A DNA stretch of 64,000 bases from an uncultured Acidobacteriota bacterium (GCA_963741955.1 CAVUKB010000005.1:1376001-1440000); one strand, 5' to 3'; positions 11,905 through 34,126 are shown, counted from the stretch's first letter. A program made the numbers and translations. The notes: generated by a model not told the origin, from the sequence alone.

Positions 11905-11987
11905 TCTTCCCACCTTCACCATCACACAGCCCTCCACGCAGCCCTTCGTGCAGCCTTCCACGCTCCCAAATCTCCGAGTCGAAGAGC

Positions 11988-12533: not shown

Positions 12534-12555
12534 GGAAAGTCTCCTGTTCCAGAGC

Positions 12556-13173: not shown

Positions 13174-13182
13174 CGCTTTCCC

Positions 13183-13839: not shown

Positions 13840-14891
13840 GCGTCCCCCAACTTCCTGATTGCCAGTCCGACCGCAATCGCCATGCTCGGCGCAACCGCCG
13901 AGATCCACTCGAGATCGAACTCGCCCTCGTTGATCTGAATGCTCTTGAACGGGTTCATGATCTCCACCGCGATCCCGAACTTGTCTCGAAGGATCGAGTC
14001 GAGGTTCATGACTCCCGAACCACCCCCACTGAGGACGATCTCATCCACCCGTTCTGCACCGGAAGTCGCGGTGAAAAAGTCCAGGGTCTTCCGCAGTTCC
14101 CCTGCGAAGTCTTCGGAAACGGAATTCAGAATCGGGATCACCTGCTGAATGGTGTGATCGGCGACCGGTTCTCCCTTCTTGAGGGATTCAGCCTGACTGA
14201 ACGAGAGATTCAGCTCACGCTGAATCGCGTCCGTGTACTGATTTCCGCCGAAGGTGATGTCCCGCCAGAAGACCGAATTGGTGCCCGAGAGAACGTTCAC
14301 GTTCGTGACCGAGGCCCCGACATTCACCAGCGCCGCGACTTTCCCCGGTGACTGCCCGTAGTTGGCCTCGTAGCAGTTCTGCAGCGCGAAGGCATCCACA
14401 TCGACCAGCACCGGCGTCTTGCCGGCCTGCGAGATCACCGAGATGTAATCGTTGATCTTTTCTTTCTTCACCGCGACGAGAATCACGTCCAGGTTCTCGC
14501 CCGGAGCGGACGCGAGAGGGACGTAATCGAGATTCACGTCGTTGATGTCGAAAGGAATGTACTGCTCGGCTTCCCACTGGATCGATTCGGCCAGTTCCTC
14601 CGACGACATCGGCGGAAGCGAGATCTTCTTGATGATGACTGAATGGCCGCTCAGTGAGGTCCCGTAATTGGAATTCTTCACGCCGCGGGCGGCGTTCAGC
14701 TGTTGGATCGTGTCGACCACCATGGAAGAATCCATGATGGAACCGTCGACGATCGCCTCGGGGGAAAGTGCTTCGAGGCCGACCTTTTCGAGCTGAAACG
14801 AACCCTGCTTCTTTTCTTTCAGCTCTACGAGCTTGACCGCGGACGAGCCAATATCAAGCCCTACCAGATTCTTGCTCTTTGAGAAGAACAC
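13836..14891 (-). CDS. pilM: Type IV pilus assembly protein PilM
   Basis: VGLDIGSSAVKLVEL, EAEQYIPF, VDVDAFALQN, LSGGGS, AVGLAIR. Confidence 0.95.
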   Translation of the reverse strand: MFFSKSKNLVGLDIGSSAVKLVELKEKKQGSFQLEKVGLEALSPEAIVDGSIMDSSMVVDTIQQLNAARGVKNSNYGTSLSGHSVIIKKISLPPMSSEELAESIQWEAEQYIPFDINDVNLDYVPLASAPGENLDVILVAVKKEKINDYISVISQAGKTPVLVDVDAFALQNCYEANYGQSPGKVAALVNVGASVTNVNVLSGTNSVFWRDITFGGNQYTDAIQRELNLSFSQAESLKKGEPVADHTIQQVIPILNSVSEDFAGELRKTLDFFTATSGAERVDEIVLSGGGSGVMNLDSILRDKFGIAVEIMNPFKSIQINEGEFDLEWISAVAPSMAIAVGLAIRKLGDA

Positions 14892-15345: not shown

Positions 15346-17523
15346 TCACGCGATCGCGTGACGGGTGTTGTACTTCCTCTGGACCGTCAGCACCCCCTCG
15401 GTCCCCTGAATCGATTTGATCAGCTTCTCCAGGTGCTTGAGGTCCGAAATCTCCACCAGCAGATCGATCACTCCCCGTCCGTCCGCCGTCCGGGCTTCGA
15501 TGTGGCGGATGTTCGTTTTCAGGTTCGCAATCGAGGAGATCACCCTCGCCAGGATGCCGGTCCGGTCCTCCAGCGTGATCTCCAGCTCGATCCGGTACTG
15601 GGCGTCCCCCTGACTCGCCCACTCCACGGTGATCTCCCGATCCGGGTTGAACATCAGATTCTTCACGTTCGGACAGTTGGAGCTGTGCACCGCGATCCCT
15701 TTTCCCCGCGTCACGTAGCCGATGATCGGTTCTCCGGGGAGCGGGCTGCAGCATTTCGCGAGATACGTCATCAGATCGTCATACCCCCGGACCTTGATGA
15801 CCGCTGAGCTGCCGAACGGAAAGATCCGCCGCACGGCCTGCTGCAGCACCCCTCCTTCCGCGGCCGGCTCCCGCTTCTCCTTCTCGTCCGCAGGGACGAA
15901 CCGCTCGATGATCGATTTCGCCGAGATCTTTCCGTATCCGACATCGGCATAGAGGTCGTCCAGCCGCGCCAGTCCGTGTTCGGCGAGAACGCCGTCCAGG
16001 GCGTTTTCCGCGATCAGCTTTCGGATCTGCACCTTGAATTTCCGAGCCTCCTTTTCGATCAGCTTCCTCCCCAGCTCGATCGAGCGCGTCTTCTGCTCGG
16101 TATTCAGCCAATGCCGGATCTTGTGTCTCGCCCTCGAGGTGACGGCGATGTTCAGCCATTCCCGGTTCGGCGTCTGGTTCGGTGCGGTGAGGATCTCCAC
16201 GATGTCGCCGTTCCGAAGCGGCGTGCGCAACTGCACGAGCTTGCCGTTGATCCGGGCGCCGACGCAGTGGCTTCCGACGTCGGTGTGGATCTGGAACGCG
16301 AAGTCGAGCGGCGTCGCCCCCCGCGGGAACGCGAATACGTCTCCTTTCGGCGTGAAGGTGTAGACCTCGTCAGGGTAGAGGTCGATCTTCAGCGAGTTGA
16401 GAAAAATTCTCGGATCCTTGATGTCCTGCTGCCATTCGACCAGCTGTCTCAGCCAGAGGAAGTTCGTGTCGTCCGGAGAAGGTCCGACCCGTCCTTCCTT
16501 GTACTTCCAGTGAGCCGCGATCCCCTGCTCGGCGATCAGGTCCATTTCCTTCGTACGGATCTGAACCTCGAACGGCTGGCCCTGCTCGGCCACGACCACC
16601 GTGTGGAGCGACTGGTAGAAGTTCGGCTTGGGCATGGCGATGTAATCCTTGATCCGCCCCGGAACCGGACGCCATGCCTGGTGGATGATTCCGAGCGCAG
16701 AATAGCAGTCCTTCACGCTTCCGGTGATGATCCGGAACGCCAGGTAGTCGTACAGTTCGCCGATGTCGATTCCCTGGCGGCGAAGCTTCTGGTGGATCGA
16801 ATGCATCGACTTGACCCGTCCGGTCACGTCGACTTCGATCTGGTTCTCCGTCATCTTGTCTGCAATCGATTTGCGGAGGCGTTCGACCACGTCCGCCGAC
16901 ACCTTCATCTTCTTTCGAACCGCCGAGCTCAGATCTTCGAACTCCTTCGCGTAGAGATACCGGAAGGAGAGGTCTTCCAGTTCGCTCTTGACCATTCCCA
17001 TCCCGAGCCGGTTCGCGATCGGAGCGTAGATCTCCATGGTTTCCTTCGCGATCGCGATCCGCCGCTCCTCCGGAAGGTGGTGGAGGGTCCTCATGTTGTG
17101 GAGCCGGTCCGCGAGCTTGACCAGGATCACCCGGAGATCCGAGACCATGGCCAGAATCATCTTCCGGAACGTCTCCGCCTGCTGCTCTTCCTTGGAGACG
17201 TACTCGTAACGGGAGATCTTCGTCACGCCGTCGACGATCTCCGCCACGTCCTCGCCGAACAGCTCCGCCAGCCGTTCTTTCGTGGTCAGAGTATCTTCGA
17301 GGACATCGTGCAGCAGCCCGACCGCGATCGAGGTCTCGTCGAGCTTCATATCGGTGAGGATGTGGGCGACGTTGAGAGGGTGAATCAGGTAAGGCTCTCC
17401 CGAGCGTCGCATCTGCCCTTTGTGAGCGAGTGCGGAAAAGATGTAAGCCCTGTCGAGAAGCGCCTCGTCGAACTGCGGCTTGTAGCTCTCGACTCTTTCG
17501 AGAATGTCCTCGAAACGAATCAT
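15346..17523 (-). CDS. relA: Bifunctional (p)ppGpp synthetase/hydrolase Rel
   Basis: RRSGEPYLIHP, LLHDVLEDT (intact HD), KLADRLHNMRTL, YQSLHT, EVQIRT, TGS, AKCC and ACT domains. Confidence 0.95.
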   Translation of the reverse strand: MIRFEDILERVESYKPQFDEALLDRAYIFSALAHKGQMRRSGEPYLIHPLNVAHILTDMKLDETSIAVGLLHDVLEDTLTTKERLAELFGEDVAEIVDGVTKISRYEYVSKEEQQAETFRKMILAMVSDLRVILVKLADRLHNMRTLHHLPEERRIAIAKETMEIYAPIANRLGMGMVKSELEDLSFRYLYAKEFEDLSSAVRKKMKVSADVVERLRKSIADKMTENQIEVDVTGRVKSMHSIHQKLRRQGIDIGELYDYLAFRIITGSVKDCYSALGIIHQAWRPVPGRIKDYIAMPKPNFYQSLHTVVVAEQGQPFEVQIRTKEMDLIAEQGIAAHWKYKEGRVGPSPDDTNFLWLRQLVEWQQDIKDPRIFLNSLKIDLYPDEVYTFTPKGDVFAFPRGATPLDFAFQIHTDVGSHCVGARINGKLVQLRTPLRNGDIVEILTAPNQTPNREWLNIAVTSRARHKIRHWLNTEQKTRSIELGRKLIEKEARKFKVQIRKLIAENALDGVLAEHGLARLDDLYADVGYGKISAKSIIERFVPADEKEKREPAAEGGVLQQAVRRIFPFGSSAVIKVRGYDDLMTYLAKCCSPLPGEPIIGYVTRGKGIAVHSSNCPNVKNLMFNPDREITVEWASQGDAQYRIELEITLEDRTGILARVISSIANLKTNIRHIEARTADGRGVIDLLVEISDLKHLEKLIKSIQGTEGVLTVQRKYNTRHAIA

Positions 17524-17566
17524 CGCGGCGGTACCAGCGGCGAGTATAACAAAGCGTTTTCGCGGT

Positions 17567-18352
17567 TTATGACCGGTTTCTCCGGGGCACCATCCAGCTG
17601 GCGACGCCATCTTCCGCATGCGCCGCGATCGCATCGAAACCGAAGTGCTCCTTCATGATCTCGGGCTTCATCACCGCCGTCGCCGGACCATCTGCGACCA
17701 CTCGGCCACGACTCATCACCACGATCCGGTCACTGTACGCAGCGCTCCAGTTCAGATCGTGCGAGACCAGCAGGATCGTCTTCGCCGTGGAGTCGACGAT
17801 TCCGCGAAGAAGCTCCATCAGATCCTGAATGTGCCGGACGTCGAGTGAAGCGAGTGGCTCGTCCAGGAGGATCAGCTCCGGGTCGGCCGCAAGCGCTCTC
17901 GCGAGGTAGACCCGCTTCCGCTCGCCGCCGCTCATCTCGTCCAGCCACCGCTCCGCGAGTGCGCGTGCGTCGCACAGCTCCAGCGCCTTTTCCGCAGCCT
18001 CCAGATCCTCGCGGCTCTCCCACCGGAACCGGCTCACGTACGGGGCCCGGCCGCTGAGGACCACGTCTCGAGCTCTCATCGGAAAGCTCGGGTCCGGCTG
18101 CTGCGAGAGGTAGGCGACTCGTTTCGCATACTCCCTCCGATCCCATTTCCTGATCGGCCGGTTCTCGAAACGTACCTCTCCCCGCTCCGGAGCGAGCACT
18201 CCGCAGAGAAGCTTCAGAAGTGTCGACTTGCCAGCTCCGTTCGGGCCGATCACCGAGACGAGCTCTCCCGAACCGAAGCGGGCGGTCACGTCCTCGACCG
18301 CTGCGACATCTTCGCGATAGGAAAACCAGACGCTCTGGAGCTCCGCCAGCAT
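17567..18352 (-). CDS. ABC transporter ATPase, cobalamin/iron-chelate family (BtuD/FecE-like)
   Basis: GPNGAGKST, MSGGERKR, LLDEP, SHDLN. TGATG coupling to the permease. Confidence 0.9.
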   Translation of the reverse strand: MLAELQSVWFSYREDVAAVEDVTARFGSGELVSVIGPNGAGKSTLLKLLCGVLAPERGEVRFENRPIRKWDRREYAKRVAYLSQQPDPSFPMRARDVVLSGRAPYVSRFRWESREDLEAAEKALELCDARALAERWLDEMSGGERKRVYLARALAADPELILLDEPLASLDVRHIQDLMELLRGIVDSTAKTILLVSHDLNWSAAYSDRIVVMSRGRVVADGPATAVMKPEIMKEHFGFDAIAAHAEDGVASWMVPRRNRS

Positions 18353-19332
18353 CAACTCTCTCTCCGGAGGATCAGAAGAAAAAAGGGGACTCCGATCAGC
18401 GCGGTGATCGCTCCGAGCGGGAGCTCGGCCGGAGCGACTGCAGTCCGCGCCAGAAGGTCCGCGCACACCAGAAGGATGCCGCCACCGAGCAGAGAGAGGG
18501 GAAGCAGCGCGCGATAGTCCGGCCGCCAGAGCAGCCGGATCCCGTGCGGCACCAGCAATCCCACGAACCCGATGATCCCGCCGACCGCCACAGCTGCACT
18601 GGTGATCAGCGAGGCGGCGAAGAACGCGATGAATTTCGTCCGCTCGACCTCCACTCCTTTTGCTTTGGCATCGTCTTCTCCAAACGCGAGGAGCCGCAGA
18701 TCCGATGCGATCCAGGCGAGCGCGGCCAGGGTCACTGCCACCGTCACGCCGGTCAGGGCCACGCCGCGCCAGTCGGCACCGCTGAGTGTTCCCATCATCC
18801 ACCGCATCGCGGCTACCAGATCGGTCGCACCGCTGAACGAAAAAGCGAGAAGGATCACCGCCGAGAAAAATGCATTCAGGATCAATCCGGCGAGAAGGAG
18901 CCGAACGGTATCGATCTGGCGCCCCCGGCGCCCGAGCAGATACACGAGTGCAGTGGCGAGCGTTCCGCCCCCGAAAGCAGCGAGAGGAACGACGATCCCC
19001 GAGCGGGCTCCGTGCAGCATCGCCGCGATCGCCGCCCCGCTCGCTGCTCCGCCCGAGACCCCGAGGATGAACGGGTCCGCGAGTGGGTTGCGGAGCAGGG
19101 TCTGGAAGGTCGCCCCGGCCATCGCGAGCCCTCCTCCCACCAGCGCCGCGAGAATCACCCGCGGAAGCCGGATGTCCCGTATCACCGCGATCTGCAGCGC
19201 GTCGCCCGAGAAGAGAGCGCTCAGTCCGATCCCCGATGCTCCGAGCTCCACCGAGATCACGATGGCGACCAGAAGCAGCGCGGCGAGAAACGCACACCGT
19301 CGCCACAGAATCCCGAACGCAGGGCTGCTCAT
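18352..19332 (-). CDS. ABC permease, FecCD/BtuC family
   Basis: IRLPRVILA, LLRNPLADPFILGVSGGA, GEDDAKAKGV, GIIGFVGLLVPH, ELPLGAITALIGVPFF. Confidence 0.92.
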   Translation of the reverse strand: MSSPAFGILWRRCAFLAALLLVAIVISVELGASGIGLSALFSGDALQIAVIRDIRLPRVILAALVGGGLAMAGATFQTLLRNPLADPFILGVSGGAASGAAIAAMLHGARSGIVVPLAAFGGGTLATALVYLLGRRGRQIDTVRLLLAGLILNAFFSAVILLAFSFSGATDLVAAMRWMMGTLSGADWRGVALTGVTVAVTLAALAWIASDLRLLAFGEDDAKAKGVEVERTKFIAFFAASLITSAAVAVGGIIGFVGLLVPHGIRLLWRPDYRALLPLSLLGGGILLVCADLLARTAVAPAELPLGAITALIGVPFFLLILRRES

Positions 19333-20231
19333 CGCCCGCCTTCCCACCGATCTTCGATTCTCGCGAGCTCCTTCGCCGCGGCTGCAACGCGCGGTCCCGG
19401 CCTCGAGAAGAGATCTTCGTCGACCGCGATGACTCCCCCCTCCCGCCGCCCCTTCGGGAGCATGCGACGGATCCTCGATCCACTGACGGAGCGGCCCGGA
19501 AAGAGCACCAGATCCGGCGGAGCGGAGAGAAGCACCTCCTGAGAGTACTGCGCCCACCCGTGGATGTCAGCGGCGGCATTTCTCCCCCCGGTCAACCGGA
19601 TCAGGTCATCCACGAACGTCCCTCCTCCTGCCACGAAGAGGGGATCGGTCGACGCGACGAAGAGGACCCGGGGAGGGTCGGGTCTCGATTGCGCGACCGA
19701 AGCGAGAGCGCGCCTCAACTGGTTGGCGACGCGAGGTCCGTCTCCGCATCGCATCGCCGCGCTCAGCTGCTCGATCGCCGGCGGGACGTCGTCGAGCCGA
19801 TCGGTTCGCACCAGCACCAGAGGTATCCCCGCCCGGCGGAGTTGACTCGCCAGTCCGGAGTAGTCCGCGCTGGTCGAGGCGAGAAGGAGATCAGGCCGCA
19901 ACGAGATGATCTTTTCGGCATTCGGCTCGAGCCCTCCGACCTTCGGCAGCGACCGCACCTCAGGTGGATAGTTCGAGAAATCGTCGGCTGCGATGACCCG
20001 TTCGCCGCATCCGAGGGCGTAGACGATCTCGGTCAGATTCGGCGCGAGCGTGATGATGCGACCTGCGGGACGCGAGTGGTGTTCGATCGGGGGAGCCGGA
20101 GATCCGCAGGCGAGAAGGATCAGAAGAAGTGAAGCGAGACTCCCTGCGAGTCGAAGGAAACCAGATCGGCTGAACGAAGCTGCAGTTCCGAGGCGGTGAC
20201 GGCGAATCGGAAGTGCCTTTGAAAACGGCAC
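19329..20231 (-). CDS. Helical-backbone substrate-binding lipoprotein, BtuF-like (start uncertain)
   Basis: Lipobox ILLAC, IITLAPNLTEIVYALG, NYPPEV, EKIISLRPDL, DLFSRPGPR. Confidence 0.85.
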   Translation of the reverse strand: MPFSKALPIRRHRLGTAASFSRSGFLRLAGSLASLLLILLACGSPAPPIEHHSRPAGRIITLAPNLTEIVYALGCGERVIAADDFSNYPPEVRSLPKVGGLEPNAEKIISLRPDLLLASTSADYSGLASQLRRAGIPLVLVRTDRLDDVPPAIEQLSAAMRCGDGPRVANQLRRALASVAQSRPDPPRVLFVASTDPLFVAGGGTFVDDLIRLTGGRNAAADIHGWAQYSQEVLLSAPPDLVLFPGRSVSGSRIRRMLPKGRREGGVIAVDEDLFSRPGPRVAAAAKELARIEDRWEGGR

Positions 20232-20257
20232 GACCTCTTCACTCCCGGACGATCCGG

Positions 20258-20488
20258 TCAGCTCTCGCCCTCGGATTCGTCCTCGAGGTCATTCCGGATA
20301 CCCAGCCGGTTGCATGCCGCTTCGTACATCTGTTTGGCGGCGTTGATGGCGCCCTGCAGTTCGGCGATACGCTCTTTGACTTTGGACAGCTCGTCTTCGA
20401 CCTGATCCTTCAGATCGTTGATCTCCTGTCGAGTCACCTGGAGCGTCGTCTCGTAGAACTTTCGTTGCTGGTCGGTCAGAACCGGCAT
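20258..20488 (-). CDS. Small coiled-coil hypothetical protein (76 aa)
   Basis: SD GGAG upstream, heptad pattern, acidic tail, fills the gap between the kinase gene and btuF. Confidence 0.7.
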   Translation of the reverse strand: MPVLTDQQRKFYETTLQVTRQEINDLKDQVEDELSKVKERIAELQGAINAAKQMYEAACNRLGIRNDLEDESEGES

Positions 20489-20544
20489 CAGTTTTCTCCC
20501 GAAGGTTTCGTGATTGCGGCTTCCATGGTCGAGGTTCGCGCGGA

Positions 20545-23517
20545 TTATAGCTTAAAGGGAATAGTGAAAGTCATGTGAGACTTGACGCGCACTCCGTCCT
20601 TGGTCGCCGGGCGGTACTTCGAGGTTCGCGCCGACTCGATCGCCGCGGCGTTGAGCAGTGGAACGCCCCGGAGAACCTTCACCTGCAGAGGGCGTCCGGT
20701 CTCGGAGACGAGCACCTGGAGCACCACGATTCCCTCCACTCCCATCCTTCTGGCAGCTGCCGGATAAGTGACGTTGCCTCGCTCCACGATCTGCGGAGGA
20801 TTCAACCCCGGCGTTCCGATGTCCACCAGATCGCCTTCTTTCACCGCGGGTGCCGGCGCGACGGTCTGAGTCACGGCCGGCCCTGGGGCCGGGGCTGCAG
20901 TTGCGGTCTCGACCGGCGCCGTCGATGCGGTGGTCGCCGTCGCCGGCGGTTCAGCCGATGTGGTCTGTCCCTGCGACGGACGGGGAGGAGCCTGCGACGT
21001 GGTCACTGCCGCTGGAGCCGGAGCCGTGGTCGCAGTGCGGGCCCGCTGGTCTGCCTCCGCCTGCTGTCGCTGCCTGTCGAGTCTCGCTCGCTCTTCCGCC
21101 AGTCTTCTCTGAACCTCGGCGTCGATCAGCGCGCGGTCACTTGCTCCAAGCTCCGTCGACGTTGCCGCATTCGCGACCGTGGCGGTCACCGGAACGGCAG
21201 TGCCGGTCGCCGCGGTCTCGGTCGGAACAGGAGCGGCATTCTGCGTCGAGGGCTGGACCGCCGGTACCGCAGTGGCAGAAGTCGTCGCCGCCGGGGCGGA
21301 CGTGGGCTGCGACGCGGTCGAGCGGCTGCGGAAGTAGAAGAATCCTCCCCCCGCGAGTCCCAGCACGATCACCACACCAGCGATCAGCGGCATCATCATG
21401 GACTTGCGTCCGCCGGCAGGCTGGGTTTCCGGAACCACCACCGGCTCGAACGCGCTCGCTGGCGTCGATTCGACTTTCGGCGCGACGATCCGCTCGATTC
21501 CCTGGGGTGTCGAGATCTCGATGGTGGGAGTCTGGGCAGCCGGGACAGCCGGCTCCTCGATGATCGGAGCCGCCATCGGAGGTTGCTCGCTGAACAGCCG
21601 GTGCATGTAGATCGCGAGATCCGCGCTGGTCGGCGTGGGCCTGAATCCATACAGGACCGCGTCGAGGTCGCGCGCCATTTCTGCAGCGGTCTGATATCTC
21701 CCTTCGGGCTCTTTCTGGAGAGCCTTCAACACGATCGCATCGACGTCGGGAGGAACCTCGTCGTTGATCGTGGAGGGAGCGACGACTTTCGCCTCACGGA
21801 CCTGATCGAGAATCGAGATCTCGTTTTCTCCGGTGAAGAGTTTCCTCCCCGTCAGCATCTCGAACAGCACGGTCGCCAACGCGAAGATGTCGCTCCGGCG
21901 GTCGATCGGACGGCCCCACGCCTGCTCGGGCGACATGTACTGAAGCTTTCCCTTCAGCGCGCCCGCCTGGGTGTGAGAGGCCTTCGATGCAGCCTTGGCG
22001 ATGCCGAAATCGCAAAGCTTGATGTCGCCTTCGTGCGAGATCAGAACATTCTGTGGAGAGACGTCGCGATGAACGAGACCCATCTCCCGATCCTGCATGT
22101 CACGTTTGCGATGTGCGTAGTCGAGCGCCGCCGCGACCTTCGACGCGACGAACACCGAGAGCTCCAGCGGGATCGGGTGACTCCGCTCGTCGCCCTGCCG
22201 GAGAATCGTCTTCAGATCGCAGCCTTCGATGTACTCCATCGCGATGTAGTACGAGCTGGCGATCTTCCCGAGATCATAGATGTGGATGATGTTGTTGTGG
22301 TTCAGCTGCGCAGCGAGCTTGGCCTCGTCGATGAACATCTCGACGAATTCCTGGTTGTCCGACAGATGCGGCAGGATCTTCTTGATCGCTACGATCTTCT
22401 CGAATCCCTCCACCCCTCGCATCCGGGCCTTCCACACCTCGGCCATACCGCCGGTCGCGATCTTCTCGATCAGTACGTACTGCCCGAACTGAATTCCGTC
22501 TTCTACGGCGGGTGCGGATTCCTTCACCTCCGCCAGAGGGACCATGACCGTCGGCGCCGCTTCCGCCTCGGCCGGAGGCGGAGCCACCGCGTGCGGCGAC
22601 GGCTCGTCCGCCATCGGAAAAGGAGCGACATCCGCTTCGGAGGGAAACGGCTCGGGCTCCGGCTCTTCCGCCACGGGAGCGGGAGGAGCGGTGGCGACCG
22701 GTGCCGCGTGCTCCGCCGGAAGCGGCTCAGGCTCCGGGAGTGATGCAGCAGGGGAATCGACGGGACCCGCTTCCCCATGAGGTCTCGGCCGGCCTGACCT
22801 CTCCAGCCCGGAGAGCGTGCTCTCGAGAAGCTTGTCGAATTCTGCAGACGCGTTCTTCGACCGACTCGGAGACGCGGAGGGAGGAATCGGCGTCTCGGCT
22901 GTCGGTTCCGGTTTCTTGCGAGCGGAAGCCTTCACCCCTGCCAGCGTGTCGGCGAGAATCTTGTCGAGCTCGTCCGCACCGATCCGTACGGTTCGAGCCG
23001 GCTCTGCTGGTTTGTCCTTCTCTTTCATCTCGGCCATCAGATCCTTCGTATTCAACTGAACAGTCGCTTCGGGTGCAGGCGGCGGCGCGCCGGGCGAAAC
23101 TGCCGGAGCGGGCCCGGCGGAGGTCGCCTGAACCTCCGGCTGCGGAGTGTCCCCGAGAATCTGTTGAACCTTCTGAAGAAACTCTGCCTCGTTGTACGGT
23201 TTTGGCAGAATGTCGGAAGCCCCGAGCCGCTGCGCATCCGTGGAGGGACTCTTTCCGGCATATCCGGAAACGGTCAGGAGAATCGGCGTGCGCTTGAACT
23301 CACTCCGGCCGCGGATGACGCGAATCAACTCCGCGGTGGTGACCTTCGGAATGATCGATGAGAGCACGATCAGTTCCGGCGTGCGCGACTCGAGAGCGGA
23401 AAGCGCCTCTTCGCCGTCTTTGGCGAAACGGGGGACGAAGACCCGCCCGTTGAGCGCATTTTTCACTCGCTCCGTGTAACGAGGTTCGTACTCGACTACC
23501 AGAATGTCTTGAGGCAT
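20545..23517 (-). CDS. Pseudo-receiver / Hanks Ser-Thr kinase / TM / TonB C-terminal fusion protein
   Basis: REC fold (ILVVEY..PELIVLS..LPKP), kinase IATGGMAEV, VAIKK, HRDVSPQN, DFGIAK, YMSPEQ, TM LIAGVVIVLGLAGGGFFYF, TonB_C YPAAARRMGVEGIVVLQVLV. Confidence 0.88.
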   Translation of the reverse strand: MPQDILVVEYEPRYTERVKNALNGRVFVPRFAKDGEEALSALESRTPELIVLSSIIPKVTTAELIRVIRGRSEFKRTPILLTVSGYAGKSPSTDAQRLGASDILPKPYNEAEFLQKVQQILGDTPQPEVQATSAGPAPAVSPGAPPPAPEATVQLNTKDLMAEMKEKDKPAEPARTVRIGADELDKILADTLAGVKASARKKPEPTAETPIPPSASPSRSKNASAEFDKLLESTLSGLERSGRPRPHGEAGPVDSPAASLPEPEPLPAEHAAPVATAPPAPVAEEPEPEPFPSEADVAPFPMADEPSPHAVAPPPAEAEAAPTVMVPLAEVKESAPAVEDGIQFGQYVLIEKIATGGMAEVWKARMRGVEGFEKIVAIKKILPHLSDNQEFVEMFIDEAKLAAQLNHNNIIHIYDLGKIASSYYIAMEYIEGCDLKTILRQGDERSHPIPLELSVFVASKVAAALDYAHRKRDMQDREMGLVHRDVSPQNVLISHEGDIKLCDFGIAKAASKASHTQAGALKGKLQYMSPEQAWGRPIDRRSDIFALATVLFEMLTGRKLFTGENEISILDQVREAKVVAPSTINDEVPPDVDAIVLKALQKEPEGRYQTAAEMARDLDAVLYGFRPTPTSADLAIYMHRLFSEQPPMAAPIIEEPAVPAAQTPTIEISTPQGIERIVAPKVESTPASAFEPVVVPETQPAGGRKSMMMPLIAGVVIVLGLAGGGFFYFRSRSTASQPTSAPAATTSATAVPAVQPSTQNAAPVPTETAATGTAVPVTATVANAATSTELGASDRALIDAEVQRRLAEERARLDRQRQQAEADQRARTATTAPAPAAVTTSQAPPRPSQGQTTSAEPPATATTASTAPVETATAAPAPGPAVTQTVAPAPAVKEGDLVDIGTPGLNPPQIVERGNVTYPAAARRMGVEGIVVLQVLVSETGRPLQVKVLRGVPLLNAAAIESARTSKYRPATKDGVRVKSHMTFTIPFKL

Positions 23518-23827
23518 GGGTCTTTTTTTTCGAAGTGGAAAGTTATCTTATTTTTGCATACGAGGGAGAGGGCGTCAATCAAATGAGGAACGGTGACCTC
23601 TTCGAATCCAGTCTTCTCGCGCCACCGAGCCCGTCGCGCCCCCACGAGAAATTCACTTGCGCGTCCGCGGCAGACTTCCGCTATACTACCCCCGCACCTC
23701 GTGCACGGATTTTGATGAGCATCACCAACCGGGCGTCGAGTTCACCAACTCCGCTGTGACTCATCAGAAGCTCCCAGGAACTGAGCCCTTCGCTCCGCGT
23801 GAGTGAACTGGCATTGCGAAAAACCGG

Positions 23828-25165
23828 ATGACTTCAGAAGATCGAGACCGAAAAAGGCGCCGCCGCAGACGCCGTTCGCGGCCGGGCGCGTCCCCGAAGC
23901 AGGGGAACGCGGCACCACCGGCTGAGAACGGGGGAAACCAGCGAAGCGAACAGACCGCTCCCGCGGAGGCCAAACCGGGAGGGCGCCGTAAACGCTCCCG
24001 CCGGCGCCGCCGCTCCGACGGACACCAGGCACCTGCACAGGGACAGCCGCGCGAAACCACGAGCGGCGAACCCGTCGAGGTCACCGGGATCCTCCACATC
24101 AAACCGAACGGAGGAGGCGTCCTGGTCTCGCCGCAGAACGACTACGTCCCGCAGCCGGGCGACGCGATCGTACCGCGGCCGATGGTGGACCGGCAGCGTC
24201 TTCTGGCCGGGCTGAAGATCTCGGGGACCGCCCGCCGCGGTGGCAACAACACCGAGCTCACTTCGATCGAAAAGATCGAGGACATGCCGGTCGAGCAGTA
24301 CTGGGAGTCGCGCCGGGCATTTTCCGACCTGATCTCCATCGATCCCCACGAAATGCTACGCCTGGAGACCGACGCCGAGAGGCTCTCGAACCGGGTGCTC
24401 GATCTCCTCTCGCCGATCGGAAAAGGGCAGCGATGCCTGATCGTCGCACCACCCAAGGCAGGCAAGACCACTCTGCTGAAAGACATCGCGGCAGGCGTCA
24501 CGAAGAACAACCCGGAAGTCATCCTGATGGTTCTTCTCGTCGACGAACGTCCGGAGGAAGTCACGGACATGCGGCGGAGCGTCCGGGGAGAAGTGATCGC
24601 CTCGAGCTCCGACCAGTCGGCGGAGAATCACATCCTGATCGCCGAGATCCTCATCGAAAGGGCCCGGCGGCTGGTGGAGCTCAAGCACGACGTCGTGATT
24701 CTCTGTGATTCGATCACCCGGATGTCGCGGGCGTACAACAACGAACAGAAGAGCAGCGGGCGGATCATGTCCGGGGGCATCGACGCCCGGACCATGGAAA
24801 AGCCGCGGCGGTTCTTCGGATCCGCCCGAAACGCCGAGGACTGGGGCTCGCTGACCATCGTCGCCACTGCCCTGGTCGATACCGGATCGAGGATGGACGA
24901 AGTGATCTTCCAGGAGTTCAAGGGGACGGGCAACACCGAGATCGTTCTCGACCGCGGACTGTTCGAGCGTCGGATCTTTCCAGCGATCAACGTCGCCCAG
25001 ACCGGGACGCGGAAGGAGGAAAAACTCCTCTCCGCCGAGCAGTTGCCGAAGGTCTACACACTCCGGCGGGCGCTGGCCGGTACCGATCCGATGAACGCGA
25101 TGAAGATGCTCCTCGAGCGACTCCAGAAGTTCCCGTCGAACGAGGCGTTTCTCAAGAGTTTCTGA
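23828..25165 (+). CDS. rho: Transcription termination factor Rho with an Arg-rich N-terminal extension
   Basis: PIGKGQR, APPKAGKT, DERPEEVTD, DSITR, TALVDTGSRMDEVIFQEFKGTGN, GTRKEE. Confidence 0.96.
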   Translation: MTSEDRDRKRRRRRRRSRPGASPKQGNAAPPAENGGNQRSEQTAPAEAKPGGRRKRSRRRRRSDGHQAPAQGQPRETTSGEPVEVTGILHIKPNGGGVLVSPQNDYVPQPGDAIVPRPMVDRQRLLAGLKISGTARRGGNNTELTSIEKIEDMPVEQYWESRRAFSDLISIDPHEMLRLETDAERLSNRVLDLLSPIGKGQRCLIVAPPKAGKTTLLKDIAAGVTKNNPEVILMVLLVDERPEEVTDMRRSVRGEVIASSSDQSAENHILIAEILIERARRLVELKHDVVILCDSITRMSRAYNNEQKSSGRIMSGGIDARTMEKPRRFFGSARNAEDWGSLTIVATALVDTGSRMDEVIFQEFKGTGNTEIVLDRGLFERRIFPAINVAQTGTRKEEKLLSAEQLPKVYTLRRALAGTDPMNAMKMLLERLQKFPSNEAFLKSF

Positions 25166-25321: not shown

Positions 25322-28300
25322 ATGTCCGGTCCAGGTCGCACATTCTTTGCTTGGACGCAAGGAAGCGCACGAAACGTCTTCCTCTGCCTCGCTCTGCTCG
25401 CGTGCGCATCGCTCGTGCAGGCACAGGTCACTACCGGAAGTCTCGCCGGTACGATCACCGCCCAAGACGGCAGCGCTCTCCCCGGCGTGACGATCGACGC
25501 GGTTCACGTTCCGACGGGAACCCACTACACCGCCGTGACCAACGGTTCGGGACGCTACACCATCCCGAACGTCCGCGTCGGCGGGCCTTACAAGGTCACC
25601 GGAACGCTCGAAGGTTTCCGGACCAGTGAAGTCGACAAGATCGACGTCAGTCTGGGTCGGACCACGGAGGTCGACCTGAAGATGGCTCTCGAGAGCGTCG
25701 CCGAGTCGATCACCGTGAGCGCGAATGTCGACGAGATCATCAATCCGGACCGGACCGGCTCGACGTCAGCGGTCTCCGAACAGCAGATCGAGTCTCTCCC
25801 CACGGTCAGCCGCAGTCTTCAGGACTTCGCCCGCACGAACCCGTATTTCACGGTCGACGCGCAGGACTCGTCCTCGACCCGGATGTACGTCGCAGGCAAG
25901 AACAACCGCTACAACACCATTCAGATCGACGGCGCAGTCGACAATGACCTGTTCGGTCTCGCCGACACCGGCACCCCGGGCGGTCAGGCCGACGTTCAGC
26001 CGATCTCGCTGGAAGCGATCCAGGAGCTCCAGCTCGTCGTCTCCCCGTACGACGTCCGTCAGGGCGGCTTCACCGGCGGCGGAATCAACGCGATCACCCG
26101 CTCGGGAACGAACGCCTACGAAGGTTCCGCCTTCTACTCGAAGCGCGACCAGCAGTTCGTCGGTGACGGGCCGTACAACCGTCCGATCAGCGACTTCACC
26201 TCCAATCAGTACGGCGGCCGCTTCGGCGGACCGATCCTCCGCGACAAGCTCTTCTTCTTCGTCACCGGCGAGCACAACGACCGCAGCGAGCCGACCGGCT
26301 GGTCCGCCGAGCCGGGCAACATCACCATCAACCCGGCCATCGCTGCGGAAGCCGCCGCGGCCAAGCAGATTGCCATCGATAAGTACGGATACGATCCGGG
26401 CTCGCTCGGCGACACTCCTGCGAAGCGCGACAGCAACAACTACTTCGGCCGTTTCGACTGGAACATCGGGAACTCCAGCCAGCTGACTCTCCGGCACAAC
26501 TACGTCGAGGGTACCCGCGACGCGACGTCCGGCGGCTACACCTTCTTCTACTTCCCGACCTCGTACTACGCGTTCAACGACAAGACGAATTCGACCGTCG
26601 CGCAGCTCAACAGCGTCTTCGGCCCGAACTCGTACAACGAGGCCCGCCTCGGTTATCAGACCATCCGCGACAAACGCGCGGTCCCGATCGAGTTTCCTTC
26701 GGTCGAGATCGGCGGCGCGCCTCGCCGCGGCGAGGTGACCCTCGGCACCGAGCGTTTCTCCGGCGCCAACTCTCTCGACCAGGACATCCTCGAAGTCACT
26801 GACGACTTCACTCTGGTCCACGGCAATCACACCATCACCGTGGGAACGCACAACGAGTTCTTCTCGTTCAAGAACCTCTTCATGTCCGATGCGTTCGGCT
26901 ATTACTTCTTCCCGACGCTGGAAGATTTCGCGGCAGGAACGCCGACCCAGTACAGCCTCACCTACGCTCCCGGCAGCGATCCTCGCCGCGCCACGACGTT
27001 CGACGTGTCGCAGTACGGTCTCTACGCGAGCGACCAGTGGCGCGTCTCTCCGAACGTGAACCTCGTGTTCGGTCTCCGGGGCGACATGCCCAGCTTCCCC
27101 GACACTCCGTCGTTCAACCCGATCGTCTCGGAAGCCATCGGCTACAGCACCGCGCAGACTCCGGCCGAAGATGTGGTGTGGTCGCCACGGCTCGGATTCA
27201 ACTGGGATCCGAGCGGCGCCGGCAAGCAGCAACTCCGAGGCGGCATCGGCATCTTCGCCGGCCGTACGCCCTACGTCTGGGTCTCCAACGCATACGGCGA
27301 CACCGGCGTGGAGCAGATCGCGGTGAGCTGTGTGGCGCCGAACTGCACCCCGCAGTTCGTCACCGATCCGAACGCCCAGCCGACAAACTTCCCCTCCGGT
27401 GGCGGCGCGATCTCGGTCGATCTGATCGATCCGAACTTCCAGTTTCCGCGCGTGATGCGCAGCACCCTCGGCTACGACCGTGAGCTTCCGTGGGGAATCC
27501 GCGGCACGGCCGAAGTGGTCTACAGCAAGAACCTCGAGGACGTCTACTACGAGAACGTGAACAAAGTGCAGACCGGCACGAGCCCGCTCGACGGCCGGCC
27601 GACGTACTCGAACATCAGCAGCCAGGTTCGCGACGCGATTCTTCTCACCAACACCAGCAAGGGCTACCAGACCATGGAGTCGTTGCAGTTGAACAAGCGT
27701 TTCGGCCACGGCTTCACGCTGGCCACGTCGTACGCGCACCAGAACGCGAAGTCGGCCTTCGACGGAACGTCCAGCCGCGCGATCTCCAACTGGCAGTACC
27801 ACCACACCCAGGGCGACATCTTCGATCCGAAGGTCTCGCGCTCGGCGTTCGAGACGACGCACCGGTTCAACCTTTCCGCGTCGTACAACGTCCGGACCGG
27901 TCCTTTCGACCACACCATCGCCCTCTACTACAACGCGCAGTCCGGGCGACCGTACTCGCTCCTGTTCGGCACGGACGTCAACAAGGATGGATACTCGACC
28001 AACGACCTGCTGTACGTTCCCGGTTCGGCGGACGAGATCATCCTTCAGAACGCCAGCCGGCAGCCGATCGACTACTCGGTCCTCGCGGACTTCCTCAAGA
28101 GCGCAGGGATCGACCCGACCGCCGGACGGATTCTCAACCGGTACGAGTCGACCGAGCCGTGGGTCCGTCAGCTCGACTTTCACTACGAGCTCGGCCTTCC
28201 GGCCTTCACCGGTGTGCGTACCAGCATTACCGCTGACGTCCTGAACCTGCTCAACATGTTCGACAAGAATTCGGGCGTGGTCCGCTACGTCTCGAACCAG

Positions 28301-28459
28301 AACTATCTGCCGGTCTACTACCAGGGCATCGACTCTGCGACCGGTAAGCCGATCTATCGCGAACGGTTCAACGGCGCGCTCGATCCGGGTGCCCAGTTCA
28401 GCACCGCGGACGTTCGCTCCCGCTGGCAGGCACGCCTCGGGCTGCGCGTCACCTTCTGA
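25322..28459 (+). CDS. TonB-dependent receptor, Oar-like, with N-terminal carboxypeptidase-regulatory-like domain
   Basis: Signal peptide, LPGVTI..TNGSGRY..GGPY, IDGAVDND.FG, GGFTGGGINAITRSGTN, SPRLGFNWD, C-terminal LRVTF. Confidence 0.92.
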   Translation: MSGPGRTFFAWTQGSARNVFLCLALLACASLVQAQVTTGSLAGTITAQDGSALPGVTIDAVHVPTGTHYTAVTNGSGRYTIPNVRVGGPYKVTGTLEGFRTSEVDKIDVSLGRTTEVDLKMALESVAESITVSANVDEIINPDRTGSTSAVSEQQIESLPTVSRSLQDFARTNPYFTVDAQDSSSTRMYVAGKNNRYNTIQIDGAVDNDLFGLADTGTPGGQADVQPISLEAIQELQLVVSPYDVRQGGFTGGGINAITRSGTNAYEGSAFYSKRDQQFVGDGPYNRPISDFTSNQYGGRFGGPILRDKLFFFVTGEHNDRSEPTGWSAEPGNITINPAIAAEAAAAKQIAIDKYGYDPGSLGDTPAKRDSNNYFGRFDWNIGNSSQLTLRHNYVEGTRDATSGGYTFFYFPTSYYAFNDKTNSTVAQLNSVFGPNSYNEARLGYQTIRDKRAVPIEFPSVEIGGAPRRGEVTLGTERFSGANSLDQDILEVTDDFTLVHGNHTITVGTHNEFFSFKNLFMSDAFGYYFFPTLEDFAAGTPTQYSLTYAPGSDPRRATTFDVSQYGLYASDQWRVSPNVNLVFGLRGDMPSFPDTPSFNPIVSEAIGYSTAQTPAEDVVWSPRLGFNWDPSGAGKQQLRGGIGIFAGRTPYVWVSNAYGDTGVEQIAVSCVAPNCTPQFVTDPNAQPTNFPSGGGAISVDLIDPNFQFPRVMRSTLGYDRELPWGIRGTAEVVYSKNLEDVYYENVNKVQTGTSPLDGRPTYSNISSQVRDAILLTNTSKGYQTMESLQLNKRFGHGFTLATSYAHQNAKSAFDGTSSRAISNWQYHHTQGDIFDPKVSRSAFETTHRFNLSASYNVRTGPFDHTIALYYNAQSGRPYSLLFGTDVNKDGYSTNDLLYVPGSADEIILQNASRQPIDYSVLADFLKSAGIDPTAGRILNRYESTEPWVRQLDFHYELGLPAFTGVRTSITADVLNLLNMFDKNSGVVRYVSNQNYLPVYYQGIDSATGKPIYRERFNGALDPGAQFSTADVRSRWQARLGLRVTF

Positions 28460-28478
28460 TCGACGCGACTGCAGTCGG

Positions 28479-28508
28479 AAAGGGAGGGGCTCCGGCCCCT
28501 CCCTTTTT
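28479..28508 (+). terminator. Intrinsic terminator after the TBDR gene
   Basis: AAAGGGAGGGGC-TCCG-GCCCCTCCCTTTTT. Confidence 0.8.
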
Positions 28509-28567
28509 GTTTCCCTCCGATCCCGATATCATCGCCCGCGCGGCGCCGCCGCTCCTCGAGGCAAATC

Positions 28568-30262
28568 ATGAAGAAAGCTCTCTTTTCTCTTCTCTTTCTC
28601 GCAACCGTCGCGCTCCCGCTGCCTCTCGCAGCCGCCGATCGGCCCGATCTCGTCGTGGTCATCTCCATCGATCAGTTTCGTTACGAGTACGTTCAACGCT
28701 TCGCGCCGTACTTCGGAAAGGATGGGTTCAACCGTTTTCTGATCCATGGCGCGACGTTCGAGAACGCTCGCTATCCGTACGCCATCACCTACACCGGCCC
28801 GGGACACGCTGCGATCGGCACGGGCCGCGATCCGGCGCACAGCGGCATCGTCTCCAACGACTGGTGGGACCGCCGCGAGGAACACAACGAATACTGCGTC
28901 GAAGACGACCGCACCGTACCGACCGCTCCCGGAGTCGAGCCGGTGTCCCCCCTCAATCTCGCGAGTGACTCCCTCGGCGATCGACTCGAGGAGCACGATC
29001 GCGGCGCGAAGGTCATCGGGATCTCGATCAAGGACCGCGCCGCGATTCTGATGGCGGGGCGCAAAGCCACCGCTGCCTACTGGTTCGATCCGAAGCTCCC
29101 GGGGTTCGTCTCCACGAACTACTACAAGTGGGATCCCGGCGTCCTCGCATTCAACGAGAAGGTGCCGGAGTTCGTCGCATCGCATTCCGTCTGGGACCTC
29201 TCCGGCCTCCTCACCACCGAACAACTCGACAAACTGACCTTCGATCCTCCGAACCTCCGCCAGTACAAGAGCGACAGAGCCGGACTCGGACGAAGCTTTC
29301 CCCATCCGATCGGGAGCGCCAACGCTCTCCTCTACACCCCGTTCGGAAACGATCTTCTTTTCGCCTTCGCGCGGCACGTGATCGACGCCGAACGCCTCGG
29401 CACGCACGACGACGAGCCGGACATCCTCTGGATCGGCCTCTCACCCCAGGACTATCTGGGGCATGCCTTCGGTCCCGACTCGATGGAAGTGGCCGACTCC
29501 GTAATGCGGATCGATGCATCGCTCGCGACGTTCCTCGACTGGCTCGACACGCGATTCCCGGGACGCGTCACGGTCGCTCTCACCGCAGACCACGGCGTGC
29601 AATCGATACCGGAAGTCGCGAAGGCCCGGGGGAAGGATGCCGGCCGCGTTTCGCTCCGCAACCCGGGGAAGAATGCAAAGACCTTTCGGGATCTCCCGCC
29701 GCTGCGCCACGACCTCGAAAGGCGGATCGCCGGTACGCTCCGGATCAAGGTCACCGACTCCACTCCTCTCTCTCAGGCCATCGTCCTCCGATTCGAGGAG
29801 CCTTCCATCTACATCAACTGGAAGCGCGTCGCGTCACTGCACTTCGACCCGGAGTACATCAGGAAGGTCGTCCGCAATGCGGTCCTCGAGATCAACGGCG
29901 TGTCCCACGCGTACACGGCGACGGAGCTGATGCTTCCCACACCGACGGACGATCCCATCCTCACTGCCGTTCGCCGCTCTTTCCGCGCCGACCGCTCGGG
30001 CGACGTTCTGATCACCCTGAAGGAGGGAACCATCTGGAGCTATGACCCTCCGACCGGAACCACACACGGGCAGCCGGTCGAAGCCGACCAGCACGTGCCT
30101 CTCATGTTCTGGGGTTTCGGAATCCGGGAGGGGGTGTACGACGACGCGGTCTCGCCGCTCGATCTCGCATCCACGCTCGGATCGATCCTGGGGGTGGAAG
30201 CGGGAACTCCGGGGGCGAAGCCGCTCCCCTGCGTGGAGAAGACGACCGGCGCCGTAAAGTGA
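28568..30262 (+). CDS. Exported alkaline-phosphatase-superfamily enzyme, PafA-like
   Basis: Signal peptide, VISIDQFR, TYTGPGHA (Thr nucleophile), SIKDRAAIL, DYLGHAFGPDS, TADHG, GTTHG. Confidence 0.88.
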   Translation: MKKALFSLLFLATVALPLPLAAADRPDLVVVISIDQFRYEYVQRFAPYFGKDGFNRFLIHGATFENARYPYAITYTGPGHAAIGTGRDPAHSGIVSNDWWDRREEHNEYCVEDDRTVPTAPGVEPVSPLNLASDSLGDRLEEHDRGAKVIGISIKDRAAILMAGRKATAAYWFDPKLPGFVSTNYYKWDPGVLAFNEKVPEFVASHSVWDLSGLLTTEQLDKLTFDPPNLRQYKSDRAGLGRSFPHPIGSANALLYTPFGNDLLFAFARHVIDAERLGTHDDEPDILWIGLSPQDYLGHAFGPDSMEVADSVMRIDASLATFLDWLDTRFPGRVTVALTADHGVQSIPEVAKARGKDAGRVSLRNPGKNAKTFRDLPPLRHDLERRIAGTLRIKVTDSTPLSQAIVLRFEEPSIYINWKRVASLHFDPEYIRKVVRNAVLEINGVSHAYTATELMLPTPTDDPILTAVRRSFRADRSGDVLITLKEGTIWSYDPPTGTTHGQPVEADQHVPLMFWGFGIREGVYDDAVSPLDLASTLGSILGVEAGTPGAKPLPCVEKTTGAVK

Positions 30263-32906: not shown

Positions 32907-32969
32907 TCAGTGTTGGCCAACAACGGCGCTTCCCATCGCACTCCCCCGCCGCCACAGACGGGGAAAACG

Positions 32970-34010: not shown

Positions 34011-34110
34011 AGGTTCTTTTCTCAACGTTGGAGCCTCATTCGATGTTCCTGGCAGAACCGTTCGCCCCTCCATCGCGTCCCATTTCATAGAAAAACCCGG
34101 AGCCGCGGTC

Positions 34111-34126
34111 TGGCACTCCGAATGCA
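34111..34126 (+). promoter_or_regulatory. Putative sigma-54 promoter of degP
   Basis: TGGCACTCCGAATGCA (GG-N10-GC), suitably placed before SD AGGAGG and ATG 34170. Confidence 0.55.

Follow-up and report, generated by a model that had tools for sequence, protein, structure and literature searches.

We describe a gene in a 64,000-nucleotide stretch of DNA from an uncultured Acidobacteriota bacterium (GCA_963741955.1 CAVUKB010000005.1:1376001-1440000; hereafter the window, meaning the whole stretch that was analysed) whose 990-residue product runs, from N- to C-terminus, through an aspartate-less receiver domain, a disordered linker of about 220 residues, a PknB-like Ser/Thr kinase, one transmembrane (TM) helix, a spacer of about 160 residues and a TonB_C domain. 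Judged by its recurrence and conservation among relatives, this kinase-TonB_C fusion is a real, uncharacterised membrane-spanning kinase of the Thermoanaerobaculia (Acidobacteriota). The reading we favour, with a confidence that stops a little short of an even chance, is that of a receptor-type PknB-like Ser/Thr kinase whose TonB_C domain acts as a sensor, reading the Ton boxes of TonB-dependent receptors (TBDRs) rather than transducing energy to them.

All three Pfam domains of the protein exceed their curated cut-offs: Response_reg at residues 5-117 (E-value 1.2e-10; 42 bits against a cut-off of 30.2), Pkinase at residues 347-610 (E-value 4e-41) and TonB_C at residues 915-990 (E-value 2.2e-16; 60.5 bits against 24.6), the last recognised also by the NCBIfam model tonB_Cterm (43.3 bits against 27.1). 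They lie as an initial annotation of this DNA had placed them in the gene at 20545..23517, the C-terminal assignment to TonB_C included, and every motif quoted there (ILVVEYEP, PELIVLSS, VAIKK, HRDVSPQN and DFG) is present in the translation. AlphaFold2 (AF2) folds the receiver, the kinase, a periplasmic helix and the TonB_C domain confidently and joins them by disordered linkers. The full-length model is poor for the kinase N-lobe and the TM helix, a model of the cytoplasmic part alone being used for the kinase, and none of the outputs gives inter-domain contacts.

The architecture is far from peculiar to the window. Receiver, kinase and TonB_C occur together, in proteins of 909-1015 residues, in 119 of the 120 best homologues listed, the sole exception being a copy of 768 residues, on a contig of 14.5 kb, that is identical to the window's protein. 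Species-representative genomes gave at least 601 pattern matches, and 535 among the matches listed encode a relative. The 79 loci that we kept are all titled Thermoanaerobaculia or Acidobacteriota metagenome-assembled genomes, and the contigs or chromosomes that carry them reach 5-6.6 Mb in some cases, complete chromosomes included. HRD, DFG and VAIK-type motifs are found in 79/79 loci and the receiver's 'EY' motif in 67/79; among the twelve without it, nine are truncated by the edge of a contig, one (L066) yielded an extracted open reading frame (ORF) that lacks the N-terminus, one (L042) reads ER instead of EY in a gene that runs past the contig end, and the last (L079) is a member of a sister subfamily. 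In the alignment of 120 homologues E9, Y10, S53, S54, S84, K106, K379, E398, HRD, N490, DFG, S514, T516, Y918 and P919 are invariant. Because the architecture recurs in relatives and the altered receiver residues do not vary, we do not regard the combination as a product of chance.

That the fusion might be an assembly chimera or a mis-called ORF has, on this evidence, next to no probability. We found no support for it, though the high-GC DNA here does yield over-long ORFs (17567-19579, for example); the same full-length architecture on contigs of up to 5 Mb and on complete chromosomes refutes it, and start, stop and domain order are conserved among the relatives. The protein is no chimera, and its architecture is conserved across the class.

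A TonB_C query restricted to proteins of 544-1733 residues listed 120 proteins, every one a kinase fusion, and about fifteen of these (1000-1286 residues) make up the sister subfamily. Its receiver is still more degenerate: Pfam matches it weakly in 5/7 proteins tested, and the phospho-site is occupied by N, A, S, D or T; the motifs that follow the receiver are retained. Identity to the window's protein is 79-84% in main-family relatives and 66-69% in the sister subfamily for the kinase, 51-64% and 46-58% for TonB_C, 69% and 17-31% for the receiver, and 16-26% and 11-26% for the TM helix. The sister-subfamily gene of locus L079 shares 41% identity, its receiver is barely recognisable and it has a small gene downstream (L079:9608-12595 (+), L079:5732-8011 (-)); it stands about 1.6 kb from a cluster comprising ruvC, exbB, exbD and genes for a 236-residue TonB-like protein, a DUF4388 protein and a TPR protein, which is Ton- or Tol-like in look.

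In source databases the relatives bear only the name 'TonB family protein'. Across the literature searched, mostly outside subscription journals, we found neither a characterised kinase-TonB_C fusion nor kinase-based TBDR signalling, and the word 'kinase' is absent from the accessible part of a paper on TonB and TolA evolution (Molecular Biology and Evolution 2025, PMC12204202). A profile search of 1.84 billion representatives with the TonB_C alignment gave 117,224 matches at E<=0.001 and was discarded as a census of kinase fusions, the best 150 of the 117,224 being mostly proteins with 3-7 TonB_C repeats and hence uninformative. Many publicly available proteins have 3-7 tandem TonB_C domains, and in such a profile search they outscore single-domain TonBs (P0248-P0393; for example 643 residues with five domains and 1080 with seven). 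When proteins of smaller size carrying this TonB_C were sought, the 48 matches included no stand-alone close TonB; most of the 48 lie on contigs below 5 kb, one of the four fetched (P0224) is a truncated call of a family gene, and the set was unusable as a control. The ESM Atlas, queried with the periplasmic half, gave scores of at most 0.86, which are leads only.

The kinase has the motifs of a Hanks-type Ser/Thr kinase: the VAIK lysine (K379), the alphaC glutamate (E398), HRD (483-485) with N490, DFG (503-505) and an APE-like SPE (529-531), of which the proline and glutamate are present in 120/120 sequences and the serine in 105/120. Its catalytic residues are invariant in 120/120 and 57/57 sequences. 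At the level of sequence the domain is therefore catalytically competent, and its description as intact was justified. The closest solved kinase is Mycobacterium tuberculosis PknB (E-value 3.9e-49), with whose T171 the window's T516 aligns; S514 and T516 both lie in the activation loop. AF2 gives a kinase domain at 342-624 and an extra conserved helix at 631-642, followed by a disordered juxtamembrane stretch. The best whole-protein NCBIfam model is PknB_PASTA_kin, which matches residues 345-762 over model positions 7-378 only and at 312 bits, under its cut-off of 450, and neither Pfam nor NCBIfam finds a PASTA domain in the 990 residues; the protein does not, on these two counts, classify as a PASTA kinase.

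Residues 1-128 match 143 solved receivers at E<=0.01, which indicates a CheY-like fold, and AF2 models alternating strands and helices with a predicted score in the local distance difference test (pLDDT) of about 90-97. In the alignment to RR468 (3dge_C), Ser53 falls on the phospho-acceptor aspartate, E9-Y10 on the acidic pair, S84 on the conserved threonine and K106 on the pocket lysine; E9 is kept and Y10 replaces the second Mg-binding acidic residue. As these two replacements, S53 and Y10, are present in 120/120 sequences, the domain belongs with the aspartate-less receivers, and the loss of the phospho-aspartate and of the second acidic residue, noted from the start, is common to these sequences. 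Position 53 is serine in 55 and threonine in 2 of 57 locus-derived sequences, and one or the other is kept in all 177 sequences checked. According to the part of a survey of aspartate-less receivers available to us, 15% have serine at the phospho-aspartate site, it is common for the pocket lysine, the first acidic residue and the Ser/Thr to be kept, and the pseudo-receiver of FrzS has alanine at the site (PMC4395418). We considered S84 and K106 beside Ser53 as a specific sign of a phospho-serine pocket and rejected the idea, since the same retention is common in aspartate-less receivers (PMC4395418, same part). Ser53 is a possible phospho-site, not one specifically indicated by these features.

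The cytoplasmic linker carries the motif 'LTSxEIFGDLL' and, twice over, '(D/E)xDKxLxDTLSG' (residues 183-195 and 226-239, approximately); these motifs are conserved even in the sister subfamily. The repeated motif, on which AF2 places short helices (181-192 and 225-235), has no further occurrence in the window or across the 79 loci (about 1.2 Mb). The first motif is degenerate in the window's own copy, which reads 'QLNTKDLMAEM' where the 120 relatives mostly have 'QLTSxEIFGDL'.

Conservation of this kind bears on a reading in which TonB_C is an address label that only fixes the kinase under the outer membrane, all regulation being cytoplasmic, by way of pseudo-receiver, linker motifs and the small protein encoded next to the kinase. 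The richest non-catalytic conservation is indeed cytoplasmic: both subfamilies keep the short motifs as well as the small protein. Pseudo-receivers, too, are often localisation or interaction modules, FrzS being an example in the accessible text of the same survey (PMC4395418). However, TonB_C is 46-64% identical across the subfamilies, like many catalytic domains, which seems excessive for an anchor, and a lipoprotein or TM anchor would be cheaper. We hold this account to be decidedly improbable.

Turning to the membrane and periplasmic parts, residues 711-729 form the most hydrophobic 19-residue window after the kinase (mean hydropathy 2.19) and contain neither histidine nor asparagine, nor does any of the 58 TM cores in the family (0/58), so that the single helix without histidine of the initial annotation holds for the family at large. 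The helix is the least conserved segment of the protein (11-26% identity against 66-84% for the kinase) and has no conserved polar residue. The spacer that follows (730-889) is Thr/Ala/Pro-rich, as first described, and long enough to cross the periplasm, holding the putative TonB_C sensor; the conservation of the sequence 'D..VD.EV.KRLAAERARLE' in it is a trait of the main family that does not extend to the sister subfamily. The C-terminal 99 residues match solved TonB C-terminal domains only, with Vibrio anguillarum TonB2 the best (2k9k, E-value 3.7e-6), and are modelled by AF2 at a pLDDT of 95-98. To judge by the YP motif (Y918, P919), invariant in 120/120, and by an identity that stays high even to the sister subfamily, TonB_C is under selection.

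An obvious alternative is that the C-terminal half is a working TonB that moves ExbBD energy to the neighbouring receptor, with receiver and kinase regulating or reporting. The protein is the sole TonB_C protein in a locus with a TBDR, a binding protein, a permease and an ATPase; its periplasmic part of about 260 residues, Pro-rich and with a YP motif, has TonB-like dimensions, and its relatives are annotated as TonB proteins. Motor-linked TonB-like proteins with cytoplasmic N-terminal domains exist, namely GltG and GltJ as described in the portion available of PMC11761067, and the L079 gene lies close to an exbB-exbD-tonB-like cluster. The features by which TonB couples to its motor nevertheless speak against it. 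The N-terminal helix of TonB carries a Ser...His (SHLS) signature that contacts ExbB (PMC12204202, accessible part), and right after the helix the D-box, a strand flanked by proline in which hydrophobic and hydrophilic residues alternate, binds ExbD (PMC10907165, accessible part). Here the helix is far from the N-terminus and has no such histidine, and the first 60 or so periplasmic residues are poorly conserved, which leaves no conserved D-box; in low-complexity Thr/Ala/Val sequence, a D-box-like pattern can match at chance level. ExbB and ExbD homologues are absent from the 64-kb window and, within flanks of at most 10 kb, from all of the 79 loci except L079, where the 236-residue TonB-like protein beside exbB-exbD, the lone canonical one seen in the class, has both a TM histidine and a Pro-flanked strand-like segment after the helix. 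The window has no other TonB_C gene, and only 2/79 loci have a separate one; that of L041 was rejected as a canonical-TonB control, its product being a 159-residue lipoprotein-like protein. The membrane helix is thus probably a generic anchor, the ExbB- and ExbD-coupling motifs being absent, and we consider a working TonB quite unlikely. The unconserved helix, the lack of a conserved D-box and the unlinked exbBD lend weight to the initial claim that this is no energised TonB.

What a TonB_C domain without a motor could do is suggested by its known ligand. Ton boxes become accessible on substrate binding, and TonB C-terminal domains bind them by strand addition (PMC10907165, accessible part); TonB_C is therefore a ready-made detector of loaded receptors. 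In the mechanism that we propose, TonB_C would dock by beta-strand addition on the Ton boxes of substrate-loaded outer-membrane TBDRs, the neighbouring TBDR being one candidate among the many that these bacteria carry. A generic membrane helix and a flexible spacer leave only a change in clustering or pairing as a plausible way for the signal to pass, so docking would alter one or the other in this single-pass protein, and the kinase domains would then trans-phosphorylate their activation loops (T516), as in PknB, for which activation by activation-loop trans-phosphorylation is established. The active kinase would phosphorylate cytoplasmic targets, among which the helical 76-residue protein encoded just downstream may be the likeliest direct partner or substrate. 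The aspartate-less receiver and the linker motifs would serve within the protein as modules for regulation or docking, with Ser53 perhaps a phospho-site, and the output could plausibly tune the co-oriented BtuFCD-like importer or broader nutrient-stress responses. The mechanism in its fullest form, a motor-less TonB_C reader that converts TBDR occupancy into Ser/Thr phosphorylation throughout the class, perhaps with a receiver rewired at Ser53 and the 76-residue protein as phospho-partner, we regard as doubtful. A complex prediction for TonB_C (880-990) with the N-terminus of the TBDR (35-265) gave a score of 0.21 against a mark of 0.32 and, run without controls, counts neither way.

Several points weigh against the Ton-box reader. 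The core that is always kept consists of the kinase and the small gene only; three loci (L072-L074) have no importer, several have no TBDR, and the sister-subfamily gene of L079 has no rho, importer or TBDR near it, so the tie to this TBDR and importer is loose, and the linkage to transporter and receptor genes might be gene order inherited within one class. The signal must cross a spacer of about 160 largely disordered residues and an unconserved helix, which allows only clustering or tethering. The receiver pattern, being common in aspartate-less receivers, is not specific evidence for a phospho-serine switch. Moreover, the positive control for the TM histidine and the D-box is a single protein, and exbBD genes are often unlinked to tonB, which makes their absence from flanks of at most 10 kb and from one 64-kb window weak evidence; for these two reasons the protein is only probably, as far as its motifs tell, not motor-coupled. 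Finally, in the structure predictions reported in the part available of PMC11761067, the TonB_C-like domains of GltG and GltJ bind GltD, not Ton boxes.

This last point belongs to a further alternative, in which TonB_C binds a partner other than a Ton box (a periplasmic or outer-membrane scaffold, or peptidoglycan) and the kinase, acting as an envelope-state sensor or tether, reports integrity, growth or geometry, much as PknB would with its PASTA domains. The kinase is PknB-like and matches PknB_PASTA_kin, albeit under the cut-off and with no PASTA domain; besides the predicted GltD binding, another TonB-like protein, SjdR, is linked to septal structure in the accessible part of PMC8262864; the constant genomic unit is the kinase with the small protein, not the transporter genes; and feature-based neighbours in the Atlas include Myxococcota GYF-domain clusters, at scores of 0.80-0.81 that are a lead only. 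Yet the YP motif and the TonB_C profile are those of Ton-box-binding TonBs, and a scaffold-bound sensor leaves the conserved placement by a TBDR and a TonB-dependent-type importer unexplained. We judge it unlikely, and prefer the Ton-box reader.

The most constant and tightest genomic partner of the kinase gene is the small gene itself. The 313-bp gap that the initial annotation had left downstream of the kinase gene is not empty but holds this conserved gene for a 76-residue protein. It lies directly downstream of the kinase gene (11-163 nucleotides) in 69/69 loci with at least 500 nucleotides of flank and in 72/79 loci overall (64-85% identity), and it is also present in the sister-subfamily locus L079 and in three loci without transporter genes. 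T19 and C59 are invariant in 73/73 sequences. Differences at the three codon positions amount to 0.148, 0.109 and 0.468 in 68 ungapped pairs, with the ORF intact in 67/68 of these comparisons, a pattern that marks the gene as under strong purifying selection. No Pfam or NCBIfam family reaches its cut-off for the protein, and it has no relative in the PDB. The ESM Atlas models it confidently (pLDDT 0.88) and places it in 'hypothetical protein' clusters of 126, 870 and 105 members, in which the commonest known phylum is Acidobacteriota.

With this small gene and a BtuF/FecCD/ATPase importer behind it, the kinase gene heads an operon-like row on one strand (Table 1). The sigma-70-like match ahead of it is weak evidence for a promoter, one site being found in 9 kb against 0.7 expected. 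The binding-protein gene lies downstream on the same strand in 61/66 loci with enough flank, and its best NCBIfam model is BtuF (E-value 9.4e-32, below cut-off); the ATPase gene is present in 45/57. Automatic ORF calls in the window over-extend 5' ends. The 670-residue ORF at 17567-19579 (-) is a GC-rich over-extension of which residues 411-670 alone match the ATPase, the FecCD permease lies in another frame, and the ORFs at 17567-19579 and 18352-19557 overlap that of the binding protein; as the FecCD domain begins at ORF residue 94, the listed permease ORF is too long and its true start lies further downstream.

Table 1. Positions of the kinase-TonB_C gene, its parts and its neighbours, counted from the first nucleotide of the window.
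Feature	Position	Strand	Basis or remark
Whole kinase-TonB_C gene, 990 residues	20545..23517	(-)	open reading frame without stops; Pfam and NCBIfam domains
Pseudo-receiver (aspartate-less receiver), residues 1-121	23155..23517	(-)	Pfam, structure alignment, AF2
Disordered cytoplasmic linker, residues 122-341	22495..23154	(-)	alignments; low AF2 pLDDT
Degenerate first linker motif, residues about 147-174	22996-23080	(-)	alignment with 120 relatives
PknB-like kinase with conserved C-terminal helix, residues 342-645	21583..22494	(-)	Pfam, PknB alignment, AF2
Single TM helix, residues 711-729	21331..21387	(-)	hydropathy scan
Charged periplasmic helix, residues 792-828, within spacer 730-889	21034..21144	(-)	AF2 pLDDT about 70-80
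TonB_C with preceding 'EGDLV..GT.GL.PP' strand, residues 890-990	20548..20850	(-)	Pfam, NCBIfam, AF2
Gene for 76-residue acidic-tailed helical protein	20258..20488	(-)	starts 56 nucleotides past kinase stop, ends 26 before binding-protein start
BtuF-like periplasmic binding protein (Peripla_BP_2)	19329..20231	(-)	Pfam E-value 1.1e-18
FecCD-family ATP-binding cassette (ABC) permease	18352..19557	(-)	Pfam FecCD E-value 3.5e-87
Heme/corrinoid/siderophore-type ABC ATPase	17567..18349	(-)	Pfam ABC_tran; NCBIfam heme, corrinoid and FecE models, E-values 1e-55 to 1e-66
Sigma-70-like promoter match (TTGACG, 17 nucleotides, AAAAAT with TG)	23550..23578	(-)	about 30 nucleotides 5' of kinase start
rho	23828..25165	(+)	NCBIfam PRK09376, 471 bits against cut-off 315
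TBDR: CarboxypepD_reg N-terminal domain, Plug, barrel	25322..28459	(+)	Pfam; ATG start and signal peptide

On the other side, rho is divergent from and adjacent to the kinase gene in 53/55 loci with enough flank; in the window it has an N-terminal extension of about 77 residues ahead of the region matched by Rho models. A TBDR stands beyond rho in 41/46 loci, and as 28 of these receptors are at least 45% identical and 13 only 26-36%, the slot is retained while its occupant changes. The start assigned to the window's TBDR is borne out by an ATG and a signal peptide. Between its CarboxypepD_reg and plug domains lies a Ton-box-like 'ESITVSA' (residues 127-134; nucleotides 25700-25723), in which E128, I130, V132 and A134 are invariant in 32 orthologues. 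A gene for a PafA-like alkaline phosphatase/phosphodiesterase (NCBIfam PafA E-value 4e-100, below cut-off) follows the TBDR (25322-30262 (+)), as it does in 13/39 loci, and because of this gene there are hints that the neighbouring TBDR may serve organophosphate scavenging rather than the substrate of the BtuF-type importer.

The neighbouring TBDR has no STN signalling domain, the only STN in the window being that of the PilQ secretin, and the window ORFs scanned include no ECF (extracytoplasmic function) sigma, sigma-70 or FecR family member. The locus does not, then, have the makings of FecR-type cell-surface signalling, and the contrast that the initial annotation drew with a FecR/ECF cascade is apt in this respect, while its force as a parallel is that of an analogy only.

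Among more distant genes, relA/spoT (HD, RelA_SpoT, TGS and ACT domains; 15346-17634 (-)) and a pilM-pilN-pilO-pilP-pilQ operon (9256-14891 (-)) lie 3' on the kinase strand; relA/spoT follows the kinase unit in 7/47 loci, and directly follows the small gene where the importer is missing (L072-L074). A 1059-residue protein (32484-35663 (+)) has a C-terminal HtrA-like trypsin domain with two PDZ domains, its N-terminal 670 or so residues having no family match. A DUF4388 protein (44403-45887 (-)) adjoins a 1452-residue protein (45979-50337 (+)) recognised only by its C-terminal VWA domain; a DUF4388 gene is also the one beside the exbBD-tonB-like cluster of L079. At gathering thresholds Rfam matches nothing across the window, and at E<=1 it matches nothing in 20150-20650, so that no riboswitch was found; a scan of the window found no transfer RNA, and a Fur-box consensus allowing up to 3 mismatches had 0 matches.

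Among known systems, the protein shares with the PASTA kinases PknB, PrkC and StkP a cytoplasmic PknB-like kinase with the activation-loop threonine in register, a linker next to the membrane, one TM helix and a sensor domain outside the cytoplasm, whereas here TonB_C on a periplasm-spanning spacer replaces the PASTA repeats, the host is diderm, and an N-terminal aspartate-less receiver and a 220-residue motif-bearing linker are added. It resembles TonB in the C-terminal TonB_C with its YP motif, the Pro-rich periplasmic spacer, the single-pass N-in topology and the adjacent TBDR and BtuFCD/Fhu-type importer, and differs in having about 700 cytoplasmic residues before the membrane, no SHLS, no conserved D-box and unlinked exbBD. 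The receiver is like those of FrzS and RitR, as given in the accessible text of PMC4395418, in that the phospho-aspartate is replaced, the first acidic residue and the pocket lysine are kept and the second acidic residue is lost, but is fused upstream of a Ser/Thr kinase; the passages searched of PMC4395418 and PMC12632262 contain no mention of 'Pkinase' or a kinase effector. Myxococcus GltG (FHA-FHA-TM-TonB-CTD) and GltJ (ZnR-GYF-TM-TonB-CTD, where CTD is the C-terminal domain) likewise join cytoplasmic signalling domains, disordered segments, one TM helix and a TonB-CTD-like domain, according to the parts available of PMC11761067 and PMC11135422. They differ in serving a motor-driven gliding machine (AglRQS) and in carrying binding modules and no enzyme (PMC11761067, same part). 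No Glt or Agl genes lie at the kinase locus, and homology is shown for TonB_C alone. GltG and GltJ are the closest in architecture, and the PknB-type receptor kinases are the most alike in working.

The FecA-FecR-FecI system is alike in concept, the state of a TBDR being relayed through a single-pass inner-membrane protein to a cytoplasmic regulator, but here it is the Ton box that would be read, with Ser/Thr phosphorylation as the output. PpkA, which with TagQRST acts in Pseudomonas aeruginosa type VI secretion, is a Hanks kinase that spans the membrane in a diderm, its periplasmic domain receiving an envelope signal via outer-membrane or periplasmic partners; it has a VWA-like ectodomain, Tag partners and, as its target, the FHA protein Fha1. 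The kinase-TonB_C system has no counterpart to this type of ectodomain, to the Tag partners or to Fha1.

TBDRs are the main route by which diderm bacteria take up scarce nutrients, and their well-described inward signalling is the FecA-FecR-ECF sigma pathway. If the reading that we favour is true, a kinase with TonB_C as its sensor would be a second, phosphorylation-based route from TBDRs inward, and the Ton box would serve as a signal as well as a force handle. For the study of kinases, it would give the receptor-type Hanks kinases a new class of ectodomain, and this in a phylum where kinases and TBDRs both abound. The family also offers two concrete objects, an invariant serine at the phospho-aspartate position of a kinase-fused receiver and an unnamed, very conserved partner gene for a 76-residue protein. 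The name 'TonB family protein', meanwhile, leaves the kinase out of sight, and metabolic reconstructions of Acidobacteriota would be misled by it.

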